DNA from: an uncultured Bacilli bacterium
Lineage (GTDB): Bacteria; Bacillota_I; Bacilli_A; RF39; UBA660
Length of the DNA: 64,000 nucleotides
Assembly (NCBI GenBank): GCA_934155185.1
Contig: CAKPGT010000004.1
Span: 31,910-95,909, forward strand
Direction of reading: 5' to 3'
Made by a program: the position numbers and the translations under genes. The notes beneath the pieces are model-generated. The model ran no database searches, was not told the origin of the DNA, and saw only the letters and a list, made by a program, of their open reading frames with translations. This document shows, in pieces, positions 1 through 9,153 of the stretch (its first letter is position 1; each line of letters opens with the position of its first letter).

Positions 1-1
1 G

Positions 2-319
2 CTTAACTCTAAGTACTTTTCTGATGCTGTGAAGGTTTGCAGGAGGTATCAAAAGGATTATGATAAATTAATAATAATAGCAGGTGCATGCCAGTCGGAA
101 TATGAAAAACTAATCAAGGCTGGAGCTAATTTCGCCTCTAGTCCTAAAAAAATAAACATTCATGCATTAGACCCTGCAATAATAGCACTTTCTCTAAGTT
201 TAACAGATAAGAATAAAAACGTTGATTTACTTGATTTGCTTTCTAAAACCAGTGCCGGAAAAGACGGTTTTGGTGGTGTAAATACACATGGAGTAATGAC
301 TACTGGGTATCCAAGATAA
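2..319 (+). CDS. yabG: sporulation-specific protease YabG, C-terminal fragment (5-prime end outside window)
   Basis: Frame is open from the window edge. LIIIAGACQSEYEKLIKAGANFASSPKKINIHALDP...GFGGVNTHGVMTTGYPR parallels the conserved C-terminal block of Bacillus subtilis YabG as I recall it (AGACQS..L..AGANFASSP..VNIHALDP). It lies directly upstream of veg, as in Bacillus. Confidence 0.75.
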   Translation, partial: LNSKYFSDAVKVCRRYQKDYDKLIIIAGACQSEYEKLIKAGANFASSPKKINIHALDPAIIALSLSLTDKNKNVDLLDLLSKTSAGKDGFGGVNTHGVMTTGYPR

Positions 320-333
320 GGAGACTATAAATT

Positions 334-537
334 ATGATATCTGAGATAAAAAAGCAAATAAATAATTTAAAGGGTAAAAAAATTAAAATAATAGTCGATG
401 TAGGTAGAAATAAAAAAGAAAGTTACGAGGGAAGAATCTTAAATACTTATCAAAATGTATGGACATTTAAGACTGAAACTGATTTAAAGAGTTTTGGATA
501 TAATGATATTCTTATTAATAATGTTGTTATATTTTAA
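334..537 (+). CDS. veg: Veg (DUF1021) small protein
   Basis: 67-aa product with a Veg-like pattern (IKKQINNLKGKKIKIIVDVGRNKKESYEGRILNTYQNVWTF...YNDIL). AAGGAGA Shine-Dalgarno upstream. Follows yabG. Confidence 0.8.
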   Translation: MISEIKKQINNLKGKKIKIIVDVGRNKKESYEGRILNTYQNVWTFKTETDLKSFGYNDILINNVVIF

Positions 538-554
538 ATTATTGATATATATTA

Positions 555-589
555 CTAATTATTAGAAAAACTGATAATTAGTTTTTTTT
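555..589 (+). terminator. AT-rich rho-independent terminator after veg (lies inside direct-repeat copy 1)
   Basis: CTAATTAT (555-562) pairs with ATAATTAG (574-581), followed by T8 (582-589). Confidence 0.5.
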
Positions 590-657
590 ATGTTTAAATT
601 ATATTGCCTCTATTTATGAAAACTTATATACCATATTATTTAATATAAATTAAATTT
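557..657. repeat. direct repeat copy 1 (about 101 bp) flanking the rSAM cassette
   Basis: Hand alignment with 2631-2730 gives about 4 mismatches plus one 1-nt indel. Both copies contain aattattagaaaaactgataattag...tttaaattatattgcctct...aaaacttatataccatattatttaatataaattaaattt. Confidence 0.85.
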
Positions 658-667
658 GATTTAGCGT

Positions 668-712
668 TTTTGATAAAAATATGTTGACATTTATCAAAAT
701 AGGATGTATTTT
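668..712 (+). promoter_or_regulatory. sigma-A-type promoter with a perfect 10-bp inverted repeat embracing the -35 (candidate operator)
   Basis: TTGACA (684-689), 17-nt spacer, TATTTT (707-712). TTTTGATAAA (668-677) and TTTATCAAAA (690-699) are exact reverse complements flanking the -35. Confidence 0.45.
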
Positions 713-803
713 AAGTTTAATGAAATTGTATATAGACATAGGTATAAAAATAATTTTGGTAATTAACCTTTTCTATATTTATTGATTTTTTATAAAAAAA
801 TTT

Positions 804-852
804 AAGGCAGTAACTTTTAGAGACAATTAGTCTTTTAGGTTGCTGCCTTTTG
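804..852. terminator. long stem-loop with flanking A-run and T-run in the leader of the rSAM gene (attenuator, bidirectional terminator or sRNA 3-prime end)
   Basis: AAGGCAGTAAC..AGAGAC-AATTA-GTCTTT..GTTGCTGCCTT forms a stem of about 20 bp with a few G-U pairs and a small bulge. It is followed by TTTGTT and preceded by AAAAAAATTT. It ends 50 nt before the ATG at 902. Confidence 0.5.
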
Positions 853-901
853 TTATATAAGAAGAATTATAAAGAGTTTTGAAAAATGTTGGAGGTGTGT
901 C

Positions 902-2449
902 ATGAATTTAGTTTTACCATGTAAAAAATATGAGAAAGGGTATTATGAACTAGTGAATAGTGCCATAAAAAATAAAGATGTATTAGAGATGGGAAATGCA
1001 TATAGAAATGGTGAAAGTTATCAAGATATGTTAAATAGGTTAAAGGATAGACGTAATGGTATAGGAATTCCAAACAGAGATGTTCCCGCTACTGTTTATT
1101 TCATAATAGATAATCATAAAGTTGTTGGAACAATTGATTTAAGACATAAATTAAATGACAATTATTTTTCTAGGCTGGGTCATGTTGCATATTATATAAA
1201 ACCTGAAGAAAGAAAAAAAGGTTATGCAACTAAAGCACTATCATTAGCTATGAAAAAGTATAAAAAGCATAAAATGAAAAATATATTAATTACTTGTTTT
1301 GAAGATAATTATGCGTCAAGAAAAGTTATAGAAAAAAATGGCGGTAAATTTGAGAAAACATTTTATGACGATGTTACCCAAAAATATATTCAAAGATTTT
1401 GGATTAATATTATTAATGATGAAAATGTAATTCCCAATACCGTATGGTTAACAACCAATATGACTTGTAATAACAATTGTAAATGGTGTTATGCAAAAAA
1501 GTATTTAAAAATAAATAGAAATATGTCGTATCAAAATGTTAAAAAGTATGTTTCTTATTTGAAAGGTATTGGTATAAAAAAGATAATCTTAATAGGCGGA
1601 GAACCAAGTATACATCCTGACATTTTAAAGATAATTAGATATATATCTAGAAATAATATCAAAGTGTCTATGGCAACTAATGGTAGAAAATTTGAAGATA
1701 TAGAATTTTGCAAAAGAGCGTATGAAGCAGGTTTATATAGCATTAATATATCAATAAAAGGTTCAAATGAAGAAGAATATATGATAAATACTAATAGTAA
1801 TGGATTTCTTGAAACTATAAAAGGATATGAAAATGCTAGTTATTGTGGAATTAAAACTAGTTTATCCTATGTTTTATGCAATACTGATACAAAAAAGTTT
1901 GATAATTTTTGGAAAGTTGTAAAAGAGCATCATCTAAATAACATTCTTTTTCAACTTTATAAGCCATCAGCGGAAGATGAAAACCAGATTATTTCTATTG
2001 AAGAGCTTTCAATACTATGTAAGTACGTATATGATAAAATTTATAAAGATGAAATTAACTTTGTTTTTGAAATGTCAATACCATTATGCTCTTTAGATAA
2101 GAATATGCTTACTCATATGATACTTAAAAATAGAATAATAACTTGCTGTCATATAACAAAAGGCACTGGTATGGTTTTTGATCCTGATTTTAATATATTA
2201 CCATGCAATCATTTTATGGGACATCCTTTAAATGACACTAATATTGAATTAGATAAATTAATTGAATTTTGGAATTCGGATGATATTAAGCAATTTAGAA
2301 AGATAATAGGAAAGTATCCTTCTGAAATATGTTCTAGATGTAAAAAATGGTATCAATGTGGTGGTGGATGTGCTATAAGGTGGTTATCATCTAATCCGTC
2401 TGAAGCCATAAATGATAAATATGTTTATACAAGGGAGGTGAGAAAATGA
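902..2449 (+). CDS. fusion protein: N-terminal GNAT (COG3981-like) acetyltransferase domain plus radical SAM/SPASM domain peptide-maturase-like enzyme
   Basis: GGAGGTG SD. Residues 1-170 show GNAT hallmarks (RLGHVAYYIKPEERKKGYATKAL; ITCFEDNYASRKVIEKNGGKFE). The radical SAM cluster motif is C189-x3-C193-x2-C196 (TTNMTCNNNCKWCY, nt 1466-1489). The C-terminal SPASM motif is C477-x2-C480-x5-C486-x3-C490 (CSRCKKWYQCGGGC, nt 2330-2371), with additional upstream Cys (CCHITKGTG...LPC). Confidence 0.85.
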   Translation: MNLVLPCKKYEKGYYELVNSAIKNKDVLEMGNAYRNGESYQDMLNRLKDRRNGIGIPNRDVPATVYFIIDNHKVVGTIDLRHKLNDNYFSRLGHVAYYIKPEERKKGYATKALSLAMKKYKKHKMKNILITCFEDNYASRKVIEKNGGKFEKTFYDDVTQKYIQRFWINIINDENVIPNTVWLTTNMTCNNNCKWCYAKKYLKINRNMSYQNVKKYVSYLKGIGIKKIILIGGEPSIHPDILKIIRYISRNNIKVSMATNGRKFEDIEFCKRAYEAGLYSINISIKGSNEEEYMINTNSNGFLETIKGYENASYCGIKTSLSYVLCNTDTKKFDNFWKVVKEHHLNNILFQLYKPSAEDENQIISIEELSILCKYVYDKIYKDEINFVFEMSIPLCSLDKNMLTHMILKNRIITCCHITKGTGMVFDPDFNILPCNHFMGHPLNDTNIELDKLIEFWNSDDIKQFRKIIGKYPSEICSRCKKWYQCGGGCAIRWLSSNPSEAINDKYVYTREVRK

Positions 2450-2595
2450 CAGCGCTAGAATTAGTAAAGAAAAAAATAACCAATTCTGGTCTTGATTCAT
2501 CGGAAACGATTGGATTATCTTCTACATATCAAATAAGTGATCTTGACTGTGACTGTGTAGATGGAGACTACTCCACTGATGGTTATGAATCTTAA
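2446..2595 (+). CDS. 49-aa candidate RiPP precursor peptide (below the 60-aa cutoff of the ORF track)
   Basis: The ATG at 2446 overlaps the TGA of the rSAM gene (ATGA). AAGGGAGGTG SD at 2431-2440. My translation is MTALELVKKKITNSGLDSSETIGLSSTYQISDLDCDCVDGDYSTDGYES. A terminator hairpin follows at 2608-2630. Confidence 0.7.
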   Translation: MTALELVKKKITNSGLDSSETIGLSSTYQISDLDCDCVDGDYSTDGYES

Positions 2596-2607
2596 TGATA
2601 CAAAATT

Positions 2608-2630
2608 AAAACAGGCAAATGTCCTGTTTT
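2608..2630 (+). terminator. rho-independent terminator after the precursor ORF
   Basis: AAAACAGG (2608-2615) pairs with CCTGTTTT (2623-2630) around a 7-nt loop. The terminator-like hairpin of repeat copy 2 follows immediately. Confidence 0.6.
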
Positions 2631-2730
2631 AATTATTAGAAAAACTGATAATTAGTTTTTTAATGTTTAAATTATATTGCCTCTTTTCATAAAAACTTAT
2701 ATACCATATTATTTAATATAAATTAAATTT
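2631..2730. repeat. direct repeat copy 2 (about 100 bp)
   Basis: See copy 1. Same orientation, roughly 95 percent identical by hand alignment. Confidence 0.85.
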
Positions 2731-2807
2731 TTATGTCAGATTTATTGATTTTTAATCATATTTGTGATTAAATTAAACTGTATTATAATATACTGGAGGG
2801 ACATATT

Positions 2808-5800
2808 ATGAAGTCTAGAATAAATGTTGAGAAAATTAAAAATAACATTATAATAGGATGGATAAAGTTCAAAAACTTAGTTAAGGAACATAAATATATT
2901 TCATCAGTTTTGGGTTTGTTTTTAATTTCTTGTATAATAGGTTTAGCAGTTTATGCTCAAGAAGATGAATATGCGGGAAAAATTGCAGCTGAAATAAATG
3001 AAATTGAAACTTATACAATAAACGAAAGTGGCGTACTAGGTAAAAGTGAAACAGTATACAGTTTTGATACAATTGTATTTGGTGTAAAATACTACTTAAA
3101 TGGCGCTTTACCAAGCGGTGCTACATTATCAAGGGATGCTATTATTGAAGCTACAGTTGATACCGAAGATGTTGATGTATATTGGTACCATATGGATCAA
3201 GATGATGGCAATTATGAAATAGGAAGTAATAAAGTTAAGGTAGAAATGTATGATAAAGCAGTAGGAACCAATAACAGTTCGTTAAATGAGATAAAATTAT
3301 ATTTAAAAGTTAATAATGTAGAAAATGATAAAGAGATAAGTGTTACTATTAAAGTATATGAATCCACTTCTGAAGAAAAATCAAATAGTAAAAGGAAAAG
3401 TTTTAAAGTTAGTAGTACTCTTCAACCTTTAACAGCTAAAATAAGAAATGGCAGTGCATATAAAAAAGATGAATTTAAAGGAAGATATGTTCCTTATGGT
3501 ATATTACTTGGTTTTGAAGGTGATTCTTTAAAAGGCAAATATTTTTCAAAGACTGAAATAATATTAGAGGCATCGCAGGAATTAAATGGCCAAATTCAAC
3601 AGCTTTCGTTAGATACAACCGATGACTATTATGGCGTTTATGACAAAGATAAAAAATTATTGTCAAATTTTCCAAACGGAAAATATGATGATACAGACAG
3701 CTCGGTTAAGGACTCGGGCAGTGTTTTATTAGAAAAGTTAGAAAGTGAAACCAAATCTAGCCAAATACAAGAAAAAAAATCGAGTCCATTATATTTACTA
3801 GGCGATAAAAGCATAATTTTGGAAGTTGGTGAGGAATATAATGATCCAGGCGTTAGTTTATCAAACAAAGGGACAGCGCTAGGTAATGACAAGTATAAGA
3901 CGATTTTCAAAAATTCTGAAAACAAAGAAATAAGTGATTATAATGCGATGGTTTCAAAGGAAGGCACGTATAAAATAGGCTATGTATATGAGAATGGCCC
4001 ATCTAAAACAACAATATATAGAAATGTTGAAGTTATAGCTAGCAGCGGCGATAAAAGCGTTAGTGTTGATGGCAATACATATTCTCTTAATGGCAACACC
4101 AACATTAACTTAATAAAAGGTGAAAAATACGAAGAACCAGGAATATTAAAAAATGGCAAACGTATTGAAGATATGAATAGTGACAACGGTGTTACTATTG
4201 AAATTACAAAAGATGATAATATCGAAACTGCTGGTGGCAAAATTATATATACAATTATTTCAAAGAATAATTCATCAACTCAGAAGCTTCTAAAAAGAAA
4301 TGTAAATGTTATAGAGAAAGTTGGTGAAGTTGGTGTAGATGAGAAAGTATTAAATGCTTCAACAGTTGAGCAATGTACTGGTGCAGAATGTAAAATTAGT
4401 TATTATAAAGATAATGAAGAAATCAAGGATATTTCGTCTGTTCAATCAGGAACTTATGATGTTGAATATAAGCTATCAAATGAAGATTACGAAGTTGTAA
4501 TTAGAAGTACGATGACGATTGAAAAGAAAGTTCAGTACAAATTAAAGATTGATAATATAAAAACAGATGATATATATTATAAAGATAATAATTTTATAGC
4601 ATTAGGTGCTTACTTTGTTAATGTAATGTCAGAAAGACCGGAGGGTAATACCAATGATATTCCTGTCTCATTAAAGATAGTTAAGATAGGTAGTACGGAA
4701 GCTGATATTACTTCGGTACCTTCAATTAATCTAAACGTTTCCGAAGGAACAAAAACTAGTACGTTAGATTTTTATACTGGAGATGAAGACAGCATAGATT
4801 TGTTAGACAATGGTAGTTATTTAGCGTACGGAGAAGAGACAATATTAAGATCACAATTTAGCTATTCAAAAGATGGTGATAATACTATAAAAAGTTTATC
4901 AGTCAAAGTTCCTGTAAATACTGGTGATAATCAATTTTCAATGGTAGAATACTCAACAGATTCTGAATCGCCTGCATATGATGTTAATTATAATGTAAAG
5001 GTAGAATATTATGATAAAGACGGAAAAACGGTAAAGTTCAGTGATGAGACATTAGCTTATATTATATATACAGCTGAAGGTGTATCACCGGGAACAAATA
5101 TCGACTTTAGAGTAAGACTTAAGGTCAATAGTATAAACCATGGTAAATCTGTTAAATTATCAGGTGCTACATGTAGTGCAGATGGAAAAAATATCAATGT
5201 TGATATTAAACAAACATTAAATATAACTTCATTTAAAGCTAGAACTACTATTTCAGTGGATGGTAATGAATCTGATATTGAAGTCGATGGTTCTAAAAAG
5301 TCAACATGGACAATATATCCTACAGTGTCAAGACCTGCTTCAGTAATTAATACTCAAGTCGCTGGTACGAACCAACTAGATTATGTTAATATAACTGTGG
5401 AACTTCCAGAAGGAATAAATTATGTATACAATGATGAATATGATAAGCCTACTATAACAGAAAATGGAAGAAAGTTAACTTATAAAATACTAGGCAAAAA
5501 AATTAACGATTGGTTTGAACCTATATATTTTGATACAAATTATGATATTAATATTGAAAATGGTAAAAAATTAACTGTAAAATCTATAATTGATGCTACA
5601 ACTAAGGATGAAACACCTATTACTGACATATCTAGTGAAGCTCTAAGAACAACTAGTCGAAGCGTTATATTCCAAAATGTCAATAACATAAGATTTTCAC
5701 TTACAACGGATTATAGTGCGGTCTCTAAAAACCAGCCTTTTACTTTTTCTTCAAATGTGTATAATTCACAATCAGAAAATACCAGTACGGTTATAATTCT

Positions 5801-6971
5801 TCCTTATAATGAGGATATTGAAGGTAGTAAAAAGTTTAATGGAACATACTCTTTAGATTTATCAAGTATTTCATCTAATAAAGAAGTGTATTGTACTAAA
5901 GAAAATTCATCAAATATGGTAACCAATTCTGACAGCCTAGCATCCTCTGAAATATGGAATACATGTGATGATTATAGTGGTGTGACAGCAATTAAGATTG
6001 TTGGTTCGGATAATACAATGAAAAATATTATTAAGATTATTCCGGAAAATAATAAATCAGATGATAATTACGAAATCAGAGCTTACTTATATGATAATGG
6101 ATTAAAAAAAGTTTCTGATAAAAAAACAAATGTTAGTGTAATAAGTAAAAAAATAACTGGTATTGTTTGGGAAGATTTTGATGATAATGGTATAATGGAT
6201 ATAGATGAGTCTATGGTTTCTGATGTTATATTAAAATTATATAATGCAGAGACTGACGAATATATTAATCAAACTGTTTCAGATGTAAAAGGACAATACA
6301 CCTTATCGGATTTGGAGCCTGGAAAGTATTATATTAGTGCAGAATTTAATACAGCTAAATATGGATTAACCCAGTATAGGGCTAGCGAAAATAAATCCGA
6401 AACATCGTCATTTAAAACAAGTTCTTCAGATTATATTACAGATGAAATAGAAATTACTAATAATACAAGAACAATTAATAATATAAACTTAGGATTATCA
6501 TTGAAGAAGGTATACAAGCTAAAATTATCTAAGTATGTAAACAAAGTAATTATTACTGATAAACTTGGAATACCTTCAACGAGAGACTTTAATAATGTGA
6601 CACTTGCAAAAGTAGATGTTAAAGATTTTGCTAATGTGAAAATGAAGGTAGTATATGTATTAGAATTAGAAAACATTGGATATTATCCTGGTTATGTTTA
6701 TAGAATAAAAGATTATATTCCAGATGGCATGACATTTAATGCGGAATATGAAGAAAATACGGGCTGGGAGTTAAATGAAGATGGATATCTTGAAAACAAT
6801 ACACTATCAGATGAGTTGATATATGGTGGTCAAAAAAAATATTTAACTATAGCATTTGATGTTACAAGAAAAGAGGCCGGCTCATTTATTAATTATGCTG
6901 AAGTAAATGATGATGATTTGTTTATTTTAAGTAGTGAAACAGGCGAAGATGGAGATGATAGTAATGAATAA
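2808..6971 (+). CDS. 1387-aa secreted or cell-surface multidomain protein (Ig-like DUF5011-type repeats, SdrD-B/Cna-B-like domain, DUF11-like C-terminal domain); no C-terminal anchor seen
   Basis: GGAGGG SD. N-terminal hydrophobic segment YISSVLGLFLISCIIGLAVYA. GEEYNDPGVSL and GEKYEEPGILK resemble DUF5011 Ig-like repeats. ITGIVWEDFDDNGIMDIDE...VSDVKGQYTLSDLEPGKYYISAEF resembles the SD-repeat B/Cna-B fold. VVYVLELENIGYYPGYVYRIKDYIPDGMTF...NYAEV resembles DUF11. It ends in an acidic tail with no LPXTG or TM segment. Confidence 0.8.
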   Translation: MKSRINVEKIKNNIIIGWIKFKNLVKEHKYISSVLGLFLISCIIGLAVYAQEDEYAGKIAAEINEIETYTINESGVLGKSETVYSFDTIVFGVKYYLNGALPSGATLSRDAIIEATVDTEDVDVYWYHMDQDDGNYEIGSNKVKVEMYDKAVGTNNSSLNEIKLYLKVNNVENDKEISVTIKVYESTSEEKSNSKRKSFKVSSTLQPLTAKIRNGSAYKKDEFKGRYVPYGILLGFEGDSLKGKYFSKTEIILEASQELNGQIQQLSLDTTDDYYGVYDKDKKLLSNFPNGKYDDTDSSVKDSGSVLLEKLESETKSSQIQEKKSSPLYLLGDKSIILEVGEEYNDPGVSLSNKGTALGNDKYKTIFKNSENKEISDYNAMVSKEGTYKIGYVYENGPSKTTIYRNVEVIASSGDKSVSVDGNTYSLNGNTNINLIKGEKYEEPGILKNGKRIEDMNSDNGVTIEITKDDNIETAGGKIIYTIISKNNSSTQKLLKRNVNVIEKVGEVGVDEKVLNASTVEQCTGAECKISYYKDNEEIKDISSVQSGTYDVEYKLSNEDYEVVIRSTMTIEKKVQYKLKIDNIKTDDIYYKDNNFIALGAYFVNVMSERPEGNTNDIPVSLKIVKIGSTEADITSVPSINLNVSEGTKTSTLDFYTGDEDSIDLLDNGSYLAYGEETILRSQFSYSKDGDNTIKSLSVKVPVNTGDNQFSMVEYSTDSESPAYDVNYNVKVEYYDKDGKTVKFSDETLAYIIYTAEGVSPGTNIDFRVRLKVNSINHGKSVKLSGATCSADGKNINVDIKQTLNITSFKARTTISVDGNESDIEVDGSKKSTWTIYPTVSRPASVINTQVAGTNQLDYVNITVELPEGINYVYNDEYDKPTITENGRKLTYKILGKKINDWFEPIYFDTNYDINIENGKKLTVKSIIDATTKDETPITDISSEALRTTSRSVIFQNVNNIRFSLTTDYSAVSKNQPFTFSSNVYNSQSENTSTVIILPYNEDIEGSKKFNGTYSLDLSSISSNKEVYCTKENSSNMVTNSDSLASSEIWNTCDDYSGVTAIKIVGSDNTMKNIIKIIPENNKSDDNYEIRAYLYDNGLKKVSDKKTNVSVISKKITGIVWEDFDDNGIMDIDESMVSDVILKLYNAETDEYINQTVSDVKGQYTLSDLEPGKYYISAEFNTAKYGLTQYRASENKSETSSFKTSSSDYITDEIEITNNTRTINNINLGLSLKKVYKLKLSKYVNKVIITDKLGIPSTRDFNNVTLAKVDVKDFANVKMKVVYVLELENIGYYPGYVYRIKDYIPDGMTFNAEYEENTGWELNEDGYLENNTLSDELIYGGQKKYLTIAFDVTRKEAGSFINYAEVNDDDLFILSSETGEDGDDSNE

Positions 6972-9153
6972 TAAAGCAAAAAAAATAATTAGTTATATTT
7001 TTATTTCCGTTTTACTATCAATATTGATGATTGATAAGGTCTTTGCTGCAAATTTTACTTCAACGGTTATAGAAGATAAGTCTTTCAATTCAAAAAAGTA
7101 CCCAACGAACTATTCATATGATTATGTTAATGGAACTATAAAAAAGGGTACGAGTTATACAAGGTATATATTAAAACCATGGGCATTTTATGTAACTCAA
7201 GGAAGTACTAAAAGGCAAGTATTTTGTATAGAGCAATATAGAAATGCATACTCTCAAAAAACTTATGAAAAATATAACTGTGAAAAAAATAACAGTAGTT
7301 GTGTTGTGTCAGAAAATAAAAAGAAGGATTTAATTAAACAAGCTATATCGGTCGGATATCATGTGACTTCTGCACCTGATAATAAAAATTTTGACAAGGA
7401 GATTGGGACCCTAAATAAGCTTACAAATGACAAGACATACGAGACAATCGCTCTTCAGGAAATAATATGGGAAATAATTAGAGGTGAAAGAACTTCATTT
7501 ACTTATTATGCACCGGACACTTGTAAGAGCAGTGTTAATGAAAAAAAATGTTTATTTTATTCTAAAATTTACAATAAAGGTAGTGGCACTCCCGAGGGAA
7601 AGCTTTTAACCAAATATAAAAGTATAATTAAAAAAGCTAAATATACATTTGATAAAATACCAAAGAATTTTGGTACTAATAGTAAGCCAGGAAGTGTTCA
7701 ACTTACTTACAATGAAAAGAAAAAGGTTTTTACGGCAGATTTACATGATAGTAATGGAGCATATAATAATTTTAATTTCAATTCAAGTAATAAAAACATA
7801 AAATTATCGGCTTCAGCTGATGGAAAAACTCTTACTATTACTAGTACTATAGCAATAGAAAAGGATACTCCAATTAAGATAACAGCTACAAACATAGTAA
7901 ATGATAAAAGCGACTATATTGAATATCATACAACTCAAAACTCTTTATTTCAAAAGTTTGGTTATGGAACAGCCGAGATACAATATTTTTTGGGTGTATA
8001 TACTCCTAAATATAAAATAGAGATAGTAAAACAAGATCAAAATGGAAATACTTTAGCTGGTGCGGAGTTTAAAATTTGTAATAAGAAAGGGTGCCCTAAA
8101 GGCTCAGTTATAGTTTCAAATCTAAAGACTAATAGTGCTGGTGTTGCTGCATATGATCAAATTGCTAAGCCTGGAACTTACTATGTTAGGGAGACTAAAG
8201 CCCCAACTGGTTATAACTTATACAGTAAAGAAATAAGTGTTACCGTAAATAAGAATGTCAAAATTCCAGTTAAGAATACGCCTAATACTTTTAAATTAAA
8301 AAAGTATATATATAATGAGACTGATAATTCAAATAACTTATTAGATACAAATTGTAACTTAGATACGGGTCCAATATTTGAAATTTATCATAAAAATAAT
8401 GGAAAGTATGAGAAAATATATTTTACTGAAAATAAAATTGGATCATATGATTATTATGGAACAAAAAGTGGTGGAAATACTACTTCTAGATTAACTACTT
8501 GTAAAGGAACGTTTGAGGCTTTCAAGTTTCCGGATTGTAAAGATTATAAGATAGTTGAAATACAGGCTCCAGAAGGAGTAACATTATCAAATTTTTCTGG
8601 TGAAATAAGTAACATATGTAATAAAACCCAAGAAGTTATAAATGGTTTTACTGGCCTTGAATTTCAAAAGAAAAATGATGACGGTGAGCTTTTGGATGGT
8701 GGAACATACATTCTTCAAACAAAAATAAACAATGTTTATACTGATGTACTTTTGAAAAAAACTCGAGATGGTGAGTATAGTTATCAAAAAGACTTAGATG
8801 ATTCTGAAAAAGATGCGACTTATGAATTAAAAACTAATAATGGAAAATTTTTAGTGAAGAATTTGCCACCGGGGGAATACAGAATTGTAGAGGCAGAAGC
8901 ACCAGAAGGCTATGAATTAATTAAAGATAAAGATTCTAAAGCGCTTGTTACAATAACCGATGAAAACAAAGATGGATATTATTTAGTTGAGATGATTAAT
9001 TACAAAGTTAATAAAGATGGTGATAATGCTTTCGCTGAGTTAATAGTCACGATAACAACAGGTAGAAAAGTTCTTAACTATGTATTTATAATTTCTGGAT
9101 TAGCCATTTTATTGGGCGCTGTAATAATTATAAGAAAAAAAATAAAGAAATAA
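6964..9153 (+). CDS. surface adhesin-like protein with signal peptide, possible N-terminal thioester domain, three SpaA/Cna-B-type (prealbumin-fold) repeats and a C-terminal TM plus basic tail
   Basis: I prefer the start at MNNKAKKIISYIFISVLLSILMIDKVFA (signal peptide); the track ORF starts at 6934. Repeats: IEIVKQDQNGNTLAGAEFKI...GTYYVRETKAPTGYNL; FEAFKF..YKIVEIQAPEGVTL; LEFQKKNDDGELLDGGTYIL...GEYRIVEAEAPEGYEL. C-terminus is ...VTITTGRKVLNYVFIISGLAILLGAVIIIRKKIKK. It overlaps the upstream gene by 8 nt. Confidence 0.8.
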   Translation: MNNKAKKIISYIFISVLLSILMIDKVFAANFTSTVIEDKSFNSKKYPTNYSYDYVNGTIKKGTSYTRYILKPWAFYVTQGSTKRQVFCIEQYRNAYSQKTYEKYNCEKNNSSCVVSENKKKDLIKQAISVGYHVTSAPDNKNFDKEIGTLNKLTNDKTYETIALQEIIWEIIRGERTSFTYYAPDTCKSSVNEKKCLFYSKIYNKGSGTPEGKLLTKYKSIIKKAKYTFDKIPKNFGTNSKPGSVQLTYNEKKKVFTADLHDSNGAYNNFNFNSSNKNIKLSASADGKTLTITSTIAIEKDTPIKITATNIVNDKSDYIEYHTTQNSLFQKFGYGTAEIQYFLGVYTPKYKIEIVKQDQNGNTLAGAEFKICNKKGCPKGSVIVSNLKTNSAGVAAYDQIAKPGTYYVRETKAPTGYNLYSKEISVTVNKNVKIPVKNTPNTFKLKKYIYNETDNSNNLLDTNCNLDTGPIFEIYHKNNGKYEKIYFTENKIGSYDYYGTKSGGNTTSRLTTCKGTFEAFKFPDCKDYKIVEIQAPEGVTLSNFSGEISNICNKTQEVINGFTGLEFQKKNDDGELLDGGTYILQTKINNVYTDVLLKKTRDGEYSYQKDLDDSEKDATYELKTNNGKFLVKNLPPGEYRIVEAEAPEGYELIKDKDSKALVTITDENKDGYYLVEMINYKVNKDGDNAFAELIVTITTGRKVLNYVFIISGLAILLGAVIIIRKKIKK

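Follow-up and report, generated by a model that had tools for sequence, protein, structure and literature searches.

A mobile two-gene cassette pairing a GNAT-radical SAM/SPASM fusion enzyme with a small acidic peptide: an apparently undescribed RiPP-like system in an uncultured Bacilli bacterium

The two genes and their family

The stretch of DNA analysed here, 64,000 nucleotides (nt) of contig CAKPGT010000004.1 from an uncultured Bacilli bacterium of the gut and referred to throughout as the window, carries near its start a pair of overlapping genes on the forward strand, as are the repeat copies and the other elements of the cassette described below. The first (902..2449) encodes a bifunctional protein of 515 amino acids (aa) in which a GNAT domain precedes a radical S-adenosylmethionine (SAM) enzyme of the SPASM type, and the second (2446..2595) encodes a putative precursor peptide of 49 aa, with a leader of about residues 1–30 (MTALELVKKKITNSGLDSSETIGL...) and an acidic core after it. 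The ATG of the small open reading frame (ORF; 2446–2448) shares bases with the TGA of the enzyme gene (2447–2449), and the Shine-Dalgarno sequence of the peptide gene (GGGAGGTG, 2433–2440) lies inside the enzyme ORF, 5 nt before the ATG. These coordinates confirm the ATGA overlap with a 49-codon ORF and its Shine-Dalgarno sequence that had been claimed in an earlier note made from the sequence of this locus (hereafter, the original prediction), and the two genes are translationally coupled.

Counting Pfam matches above their gathering scores, the N-terminal part of the enzyme (residues ~1–175, 902..1426) is a GNAT domain of the Acetyltransf_3 type, matched by Acetyltransf_3 (PF13302; residues 63–148, 45 bits against a cut-off of 25.4) and by Acetyltransf_1 (PF00583; 37.6 bits against 20.7). 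The GNAT matches together span residues ~58–148, and the acetyl-CoA loop, R-K-K-G-Y-A at residues ~104–109, is intact and conserved in the fused clade. Downstream follow matches to Radical_SAM (PF04055; residues 188–328, 74 bits against 29.5) and to SPASM (PF13186; residues 418–481, 25.2 bits against 21.5). The CX3CX2C radical SAM cluster motif (C189/C193/C196, 1466..1489), recognised in the sequence and in alignments, and the C477-X2-C480-X5-C486-X3-C490 motif of the SPASM auxiliary-cluster region (2087..2371) show no or almost no variation among the 36 and the 104 relatives aligned, and C396, C415/C416 and C435 of the same region are likewise conserved across the family alignments; the usual last Cys after the CX3C of the SPASM motif is absent from the enzyme. 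By domain and motif criteria the enzyme is a member of the radical SAM superfamily, of its SPASM subfamily and of the GNAT family, with GNAT catalysis predicted, and the proposal that all three parts occur in one 515-aa ORF with the cysteines originally named is borne out by both Pfam and the alignments.

Against the curated NCBIfam models the enzyme reached no cut-off and has no equivalog. Its best score is to MoaA (86 bits against 325), those to the anaerobic sulfatase maturase (TIGR03942) and mycofactocin (TIGR03962) models are 45 against 349.45 and 57 against 265 bits, respectively, and weak full-length matches go to the GeoRSP, NirJ2, ScmF, mycofactocin, ACGX and anaerobic sulfatase-maturating enzyme (anSME) models. 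With scores so far below the curated cut-offs, the enzyme does not group with the anaerobic sulfatase-maturase or cofactor-biosynthesis families, a grouping that would have spoken against the original prediction. A sequence search of the PDB returned no close solved structure, with PqqE as a weak match, and the Pfam scan of the enzyme gave no match to PqqD or to the recognition element (RRE) of systems making ribosomally synthesised peptides with post-translational modifications (RiPPs). The AlphaFold2 model (predicted local distance difference test, pLDDT, 93.3; predicted template-modelling score, pTM, 0.76) superposes on BlsE, SuiB, anSME, MoaA, SkfB and PqqE at 14–18% identity. Judged from these superpositions the structural neighbours of the model are generic SPASM/twitch enzymes, and four of them (SuiB, anSME, SkfB and PqqE) modify peptides. 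Assignment to a defence system was discarded, PADLOC having yielded only generic radical SAM similarity to pVip.

A small ORF of 48–58 codons overlaps or abuts the enzyme stop codon at every GNAT-linked locus with downstream sequence (the window, L001, L004/L014, L007, L011–L021, L023, L028, L042 and L061), with offsets of −4 to +25 nt in the relatives. The encoded peptides align with that of the window: they start M-x-A-L-x-L, continue as N-S-G-[LI]-D...E-T-I-G-L or Y-x-G-T-x-I...G-[IL], and end [DN]-L-D-C-[DN]-C-[VI]-D...D-C-S-T-x-x-Y-E-[YS]. In six orthologues the ratio of non-synonymous to synonymous substitution rates (dN/dS) of the peptide gene is 0.11–0.36 and the other five frames are closed, a pattern that indicates a real gene under purifying selection. 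Both the conservation of the downstream ORF and the tie between the fusion and a small acidic Cys-containing ORF, as originally proposed, are upheld by these comparisons. The acidic core of the window peptide reads DLDCDCVDGD(Y)STDGYES, where codon 42 (2569–2571) is TAC and a Tyr replaces the third conserved Cys of nearly all relatives (C42Y). The core of the 'Clostridium sp. CAG:710' allele contains seven Asp/Glu, three Cys and no Lys or Arg, the window allele has two Cys, and a conserved Tyr (GYE[YS]) lies close to the C-terminus. Other alleles in the population include a C42R variant and two that end after DCSH, without the GYES tail. The CAG:710 (Cys42) peptide, CCZ59673.1, is found on 786 contigs of a public assembly collection, annotated solely as 'unknown'; the peptides match no NCBIfam or Pfam model, and that of the window has no NCBIfam match at E ≤ 10.

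Relatives were drawn from public assemblies and from one genome per species. A phmmer search of 1.84 billion representative proteins returned 199 clusters at E ≤ 1e-30, the ~200 clusters of the family being defined at 50% identity, and the hosts are gut Firmicutes and Patescibacteria, together with bins labelled Woesearchaeota. The enzymes nearest to that of the window are those of CAG:710 (97%) and CAG:594 (92%), and the remaining fused forms come from metagenome-assembled genomes labelled uncultured Bacilli, Mollicutes or Tenericutes. Most family proteins are ~335 aa long, start ~8 residues ahead of the CX3CX2C motif and carry neither RRE nor GNAT. A hidden Markov model (HMM) of the leader finds the peptide at 53 of 90 retrieved loci, nearly always directly downstream of the enzyme gene; among them are loci of Clostridia and Patescibacteria with enzymes 31–45% identical to that of the window (31–34% in Patescibacteria). 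The family leader motif is roughly L-x-x-Y-x-G-T-x-I-x-A-P-I-A-x-G-[VIL], and its version in the window clade is K-x-x-N-S-G-[LI]-D-x-x-E-T-I-G-L. The cores are hypervariable in length and repeat number, with Cys alternating with Asp, Asn, His or Gln, as in DCNCVDGDC, two to four DCHCGSDDC repeats, CDCDCD runs or QCPCKCQCQCDC; the residue preceding a core Cys is D, E, N or Q in ~77–90% of cases, and (D/N)-C units are universal.

The combination of a conserved leader and a variable, repeat-expanding core beside a SPASM enzyme constitutes a RiPP precursor–maturase signature. On these patterns the enzyme and peptide family has the generic hallmark of a RiPP system, in that a gene-encoded precursor whose leader is conserved and whose core varies accompanies a modifying enzyme; the modification itself is predicted, and the peptide is very probably the substrate of the enzyme. 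Neither literature searches for such a family nor a term search within one paper turned up a description of it; with no matching model and no close structure either, the earlier qualification of the system as undescribed stands as far as it can be tested. The picture that emerges is that of a conserved, apparently undescribed RiPP-like family, with a predicted bifunctional maturase in one clade, that falls within the radical SAM RiPP paradigm.

Cassette boundaries and mobility

The two genes are bracketed by a direct repeat of ~102 nt, here named R, the left copy of which (556..657) is 95–100% identical to the right copy (2630..2730). Comparison of contigs encoding an identical Veg protein separates empty strains (L090, L091 and L095), in which veg is followed by a single R and by a gene for a 1391-aa surface protein, from filled ones (L094, L096, L097 and the window), in which 658–2629 lies between two R copies. 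Empty-site strains lack exactly bases 658–2629, and the two genes are therefore the whole unit, in agreement with the word minimal in the original prediction; the flanks of empty and filled strains are 93–98% identical, so that the cassette constitutes a presence/absence polymorphism in one species-level population. The right R accompanies the cassette in CAG:710, where window positions 667–2728 recur at 97.7% identity in other surroundings, with GtrA/glycosyltransferase genes on one side and an ABC-2 transporter on the other. In CAG:594, the copy corresponds to positions 660–2634 (91% identity) and is flanked by a PP-loop ATPase gene and a TetR gene. As far as can be judged from these contig comparisons, the segment 658–2629 (plus R) is an autonomous, horizontally mobile unit. 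A single crossover of a circular form of the cassette plus R at a resident R would suffice to produce the 102-nt duplication. No recombinase or transposase gene lies beside the cassette in any of the three contexts. The interpretation of R as a dispersed repeat or miniature inverted-repeat transposable element was rejected, the window containing just two copies, as was carriage by a phage or plasmid: a phage search gave no match, and the plasmid matches were stand-alone GNATs at ~33% identity.

The segment also carries expression signals of its own. Its 5' region (658..901) comprises a promoter-like TTGACA-17-TATTTT site (684–712), a leader (715–901) with a strong hairpin, GGCAGUAAC...GUUGCUGCC followed by UUUUGUU (~806–856; fold z = −2.85), and the Shine-Dalgarno sequence of the enzyme gene, GGAGGTG (891–897). 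Placed after the promoter-like site and ahead of the enzyme start codon, this hairpin recurs in both the CAG:710 and the CAG:594 copy and could act as an attenuator or be what is left of a terminator; a known riboswitch at this position was ruled out by an Rfam scan of window positions 1–3000, which gave no match. On the 3' side of the peptide gene, a terminator-like hairpin with a T-run (AAAACAGG..CCTGTTTT, 2608..2630) was found by eye, and a consensus terminator scan with a stricter rule did not call it. A further hairpin with a T-run after it (TAATTATTAG..CTGATAATTAG), proximal to veg, lies in the left R. Given that the segment has its own promoter-like site, leader hairpin and terminator-like hairpin, the surface-protein genes and, upstream, yabG/veg are bystanders, and the occurrence of the downstream surface-protein genes in empty strains too places them outside the cassette.

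These boundaries and this mobility, together with the architecture, the intact motifs, the obligatory enzyme–peptide pairing, the leader/core pattern, the selection on the peptide gene and the GNAT linkage, make it probable that bases 658–2629 plus R constitute an autonomous mobile two-gene cassette of RiPP type. Were the pairing functional, it would represent an unusually compact and tractable system in which one enzyme gene and a 49-codon gene, on ~2 kb and under their own promoter, should be enough for a product, and its presence or absence within a species would let natural strains reveal the ecological effect of that product, be it in competition, metal acquisition or signalling.

The distribution of the cassette bears as well on a different reading, in which the product would act as an intracellular factor, be it a metal-binding or redox peptide, a cofactor precursor like those of PQQ or mycofactocin, or a peptide akin to those of SCIFF. 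A cassette limited to two genes would be natural for such a factor, which would account for the missing protease and transporter, and the core is extremely acidic and thiol-rich, with the Tyr of GYE[YS] conserved near the C-terminus. The occurrence of relatives in reduced-genome lineages (Patescibacteria) and Woesearchaeota-labelled bins, and the housekeeping neighbours seen in some genomes (relA-like, dnaG/rpoD), point in the same direction. Within-species presence/absence and movement between genomes, however, fit accessory, competition-type traits; the cores of the family are hypervariable, unlike cofactor precursors; two natural alleles dispense with the GYES tail; and the MftC and PqqE models stay far under their cut-offs. 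We consider an intracellular factor improbable. Mycofactocin and PQQ systems in the strict sense were rejected on the TIGR03962 score given above and the missing PqqD match, the precursor ending in GYES or GYEY and some alleles having no tail.

Predicted modification of the peptide

In the mobile RiPP-type cassette that we favour, the 49-aa product would be a precursor peptide whose N-terminal leader, in the version of the motif proper to the clade, would dock straight onto the radical SAM/SPASM domain, with no RRE. SAM would be reductively cleaved at the C189/C193/C196 cluster, the resulting 5'-deoxyadenosyl radical would abstract a hydrogen in the core DLDC-DC-VDGDC, and the SPASM auxiliary clusters would assist in crosslinking the conserved cysteines; leader binding, SAM cleavage and the help of the auxiliary clusters are steps that we infer by analogy with SuiB, CteB, PapB, anSME and PqqE. 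If functional, the pair would add a radical SAM maturase family that reads its leader without an RRE, and a conserved (D/N)-C repeat substrate, to radical SAM chemistry. The core has an Asp at positions −1 and −3 of every Cys and contains two C-X3-D motifs. The likeliest product would bear Cys-S-to-carbon thioethers to nearby Asp or Asn, of the ranthipeptide or sactipeptide type, with both of which the C-X3-D and D-x-D-C motifs are compatible, an assignment that is tentative and falls somewhat short of probable. PapB joins Cys to Asp or Glu by thioethers at C-X3-D/E motifs, with other spacings accepted as well (PMC9413430), and it is this precedent, together with the C-X3-D motifs of the core, that favours Cys–Asp/Asn thioethers here.

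Functionally, the cassette most resembles the two-gene systems of ranthipeptides and SCIFF, and it is no member of any curated family tested. As in the ranthipeptide pair PapA/PapB (freyrasin), a SPASM enzyme lies beside a small precursor, with Cys–Asp/Asn pairing in the core, and the N-x-x-C motif of NxxcA/NxxcB, also a ranthipeptide system, can be compared with the D-x-x-C of the window peptide. The differences from ranthipeptide systems lie in the missing RRE, the missing membership of a curated maturase family, another leader and the fused GNAT. SCIFF (CteA/CteB) is likewise a minimal pair of low-GC Firmicutes, made up of a SPASM enzyme and a Cys-rich peptide of ~45–50 aa with no protease or transporter. 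In contrast to SCIFF, the window peptide misses all NCBIfam models, and the SCIFF maturase model is not among the 25 best matches of the enzyme; CteB has an N-terminal RRE that the window enzyme lacks, and the cassette is accessory and mobile whereas SCIFF is a conserved core locus. The resemblance to SCIFF put forward in the original prediction thus holds for the minimal two-gene organisation and does not extend to membership, the corresponding models being unmatched. A more far-reaching proposal would see here a new RiPP class, in which an RRE-independent SPASM family gives its (Asp/Asn)-Cys repeat units a new crosslink topology and a branch that has captured a GNAT both cyclises and acylates its peptide; the product, a small polyanionic peptide with thioether bridges, might chelate metal and would travel on a mobile module of 2 kb. 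We regard this proposal as doubtful.

Several observations weigh against the cassette being a working RiPP-type system. It contains no protease, exporter or immunity gene. The C42Y allele of the window is present on ~3–4 contigs, against 786 for the Cys form, and with the loss of the third conserved Cys the window copy may make an altered or defective product; the allele was found again in an independent sample and is therefore not a sequencing error. Decay is also apparent among the relatives: L061 has a fragmented enzyme and L042 a frameshift in its GNAT, and L004 and L014 carry an in-frame TGA at the near-invariant Trp182 codon (4986–4988 in L004), an allele for which more contigs are known than for the intact 515-aa one in its 90% cluster. 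Two further relatives, P0042 and P0048, join a GNAT to a degenerate radical SAM domain with no Cys-rich peptide gene after it. Two features set the GNAT-linked peptides apart from those of GNAT-free relatives, an N-terminal M-[TNSD]-A-L and a tail reading C-S-[TI]-x-x-[YW], a correlation that is weak because the groups are phylogenetically nested and not independent. Lastly, the tightest superposition of the enzyme model is on anSME (template-modelling score ~0.66–0.68; root-mean-square deviation ~4.2–4.8 angstroms over ~360 columns), an enzyme that oxidises Cys and forms no crosslink.

This last superposition would suit a reaction other than thioether formation, namely a non-crosslinking one, such as the anSME-like conversion of Cys to formylglycine, or a C–C or C–O crosslink involving Tyr. 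Like the window enzyme, anSME is a SPASM enzyme without an RRE, and it binds a Cys-containing peptide directly; SuiB (Lys–Trp) and PqqE (Glu–Tyr), both neighbours of the model, are SPASM enzymes that make such links. Systems of the anSME type, however, include no small peptide dedicated to the enzyme, the window peptide does not contain the sulfatase motif C/S-x-P/A-x-R, and the window enzyme reaches only 45 of the 349 bits set as cut-off for the anSME model. Non-GNAT relatives and some alleles, moreover, do without the Tyr tail, whereas (D/N)-C units are universal. A reaction of this kind is accordingly rated as quite improbable.

The fused GNAT domain

Searched with its own HMM, the GNAT domain turned up solely in the sub-branch closest to the window, where it is fused to the N-terminus of the enzyme in ~30 clusters at 90% identity, spanning 50–97% identity. 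Other arrangements occur beside the fusion. In L028, the order is radical SAM enzyme, GNAT and peptide, with overlapping genes; in L042, the GNAT comes after the peptide; and in L023 the place after the peptide is taken by a canonical Acetyltransf_3 GNAT of a different subfamily. Such recurrent, variously arranged and partly non-orthologous linkage argues that acyl transfer belongs to the pathway of this branch, and the distribution suggests that the GNAT is an add-on with a tailoring or immunity role. The original prediction had placed the GNAT domain in the position of an RRE, as a possible replacement for it. This part of the proposal is contradicted by the GNAT-free relatives, which share the leader motif, so that the GNAT is no RRE substitute; by all sequence indications, the whole family is without an RRE.

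In the RiPP-type cassette, the fused GNAT would take an acetyl or other acyl group from CoA and attach it to one of the amines of this peptide, before or after crosslinking, and we think it probable that it acts on the peptide or its product. The alpha-amino terminus would be the likeliest acceptor, because the core has no Lys; N-terminal acetylation in particular is conceivable, if rather unlikely. If functional, the enzyme would be the first GNAT-radical SAM/SPASM fusion found and would coordinate two modifications on one scaffold. To our knowledge, the only well-known protein that combines radical SAM and GNAT domains is Elp3, which acts in tRNA cm5U34 modification. Elp3 has its radical SAM domain at the N-terminus and its GNAT at the C-terminus, has no SPASM domain and no partner peptide, and takes tRNA as substrate; the window enzyme shows the order GNAT to radical SAM/SPASM, and the Elp3 model is not among its matches. 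RimL/RimJ-like GNATs tied to ribosomal peptides, where they N-acetylate or else detoxify the product, include MccE, microviridin MdnD and the selidamide acyltransferases, none of them known to be fused to a radical SAM enzyme.

The affinities of the domain lead to a further explanation, in which the GNAT would serve self-immunity by acetylating and inactivating the product inside the producer. In microcin C producers, MccE combines a tailoring domain with a RimL-like GNAT that detoxifies the product. The GNAT of the window is a generic RimJ/RimL/SSAT-like domain with weak PDB matches to RimJ (3igr) and MccE (3r95), no further immunity gene or exporter is encoded in the cassette, and the many family members without a GNAT indicate that the domain is dispensable for the core chemistry. 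Its variable position, and the recruitment of another subfamily in L023, are also what would be expected of an accessory function. On the other hand, the similarity to MccE is marginal (E = 0.06), and a fusion kept across 50–97% identity suits sequential action on one bound substrate better. Self-immunity is thus rated as improbable, and a tailoring GNAT within the RiPP-type cassette remains the reading adopted here.

Stand-alone and tandem-repeat GNAT relatives have no connection with radical SAM enzymes, and three candidates for distant fusions (P0127, P0151 and P0222) were rejected as tandem GNAT repeats with no radical SAM domain. The TGA of L004/L014 leaves the fusion in two pieces, a GNAT of 181 aa and a radical SAM part of 329 aa that lacks strand beta-1. 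A true split-gene arrangement was ruled out by the position of the TGA, exactly at the Trp182 codon, and genetic code 4 was rejected on account of long neighbouring genes that are unbroken under code 11; readthrough of UGA by tRNA-Trp is a possibility. In P0042 (L100, 5001–6560), the CX3CX2C motif and several SPASM cysteines are lost, and the neighbouring genes encode an ATP-grasp protein, an alanine racemase and a flippase; P0042 and P0048 may represent a pseudoenzyme in new use.

Some loci of the wider family carry additional genes. In Patescibacteria (L050, L053, L059, L060, L063 and L089) and in Woesearchaeota-labelled bins (L052–L058, L078, L080 and L088), a conserved ORF of ~100 aa with an HExxH motif lies ~350–450 nt 3' of the radical SAM gene, after the peptide gene where one is present. 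Weakly similar to Peptidase_M76/M78, its product is a candidate leader peptidase, and the window cassette has no such ORF. The filters used found no Cys-rich peptide at the Woesearchaeota-labelled loci. In two species, represented by L001 (3543–4988) and L007 (3555–4994), whose enzymes are 74% and 54% identical to that of the window, the cassette begins 6–12 nt after a RelA/SpoT-like gene (HD, RelA_SpoT and TGS domains), which suggests co-transcription; a general link to relA was rejected, the adjacency being confined to these two loci and, more loosely, L032. In the Clostridiales locus L009 (3497–6511), and also in L010 and L045, two radical SAM–peptide pairs occur in tandem; the cores of the L009 pairs are dissimilar (SEYCQ repeats in one and NCDNDCNCNCSDCDC in the other), and an extra 40-aa Cys-containing ORF follows. 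Beyond the right R of the window, finally, two overlapping genes (2808–6971, 1387 aa; 6934–9153, 739 aa) encode the surface proteins, the second of which ends in a hydrophobic segment, and their L090 orthologues match the Pfam families SdrD_B and SpaA, respectively.

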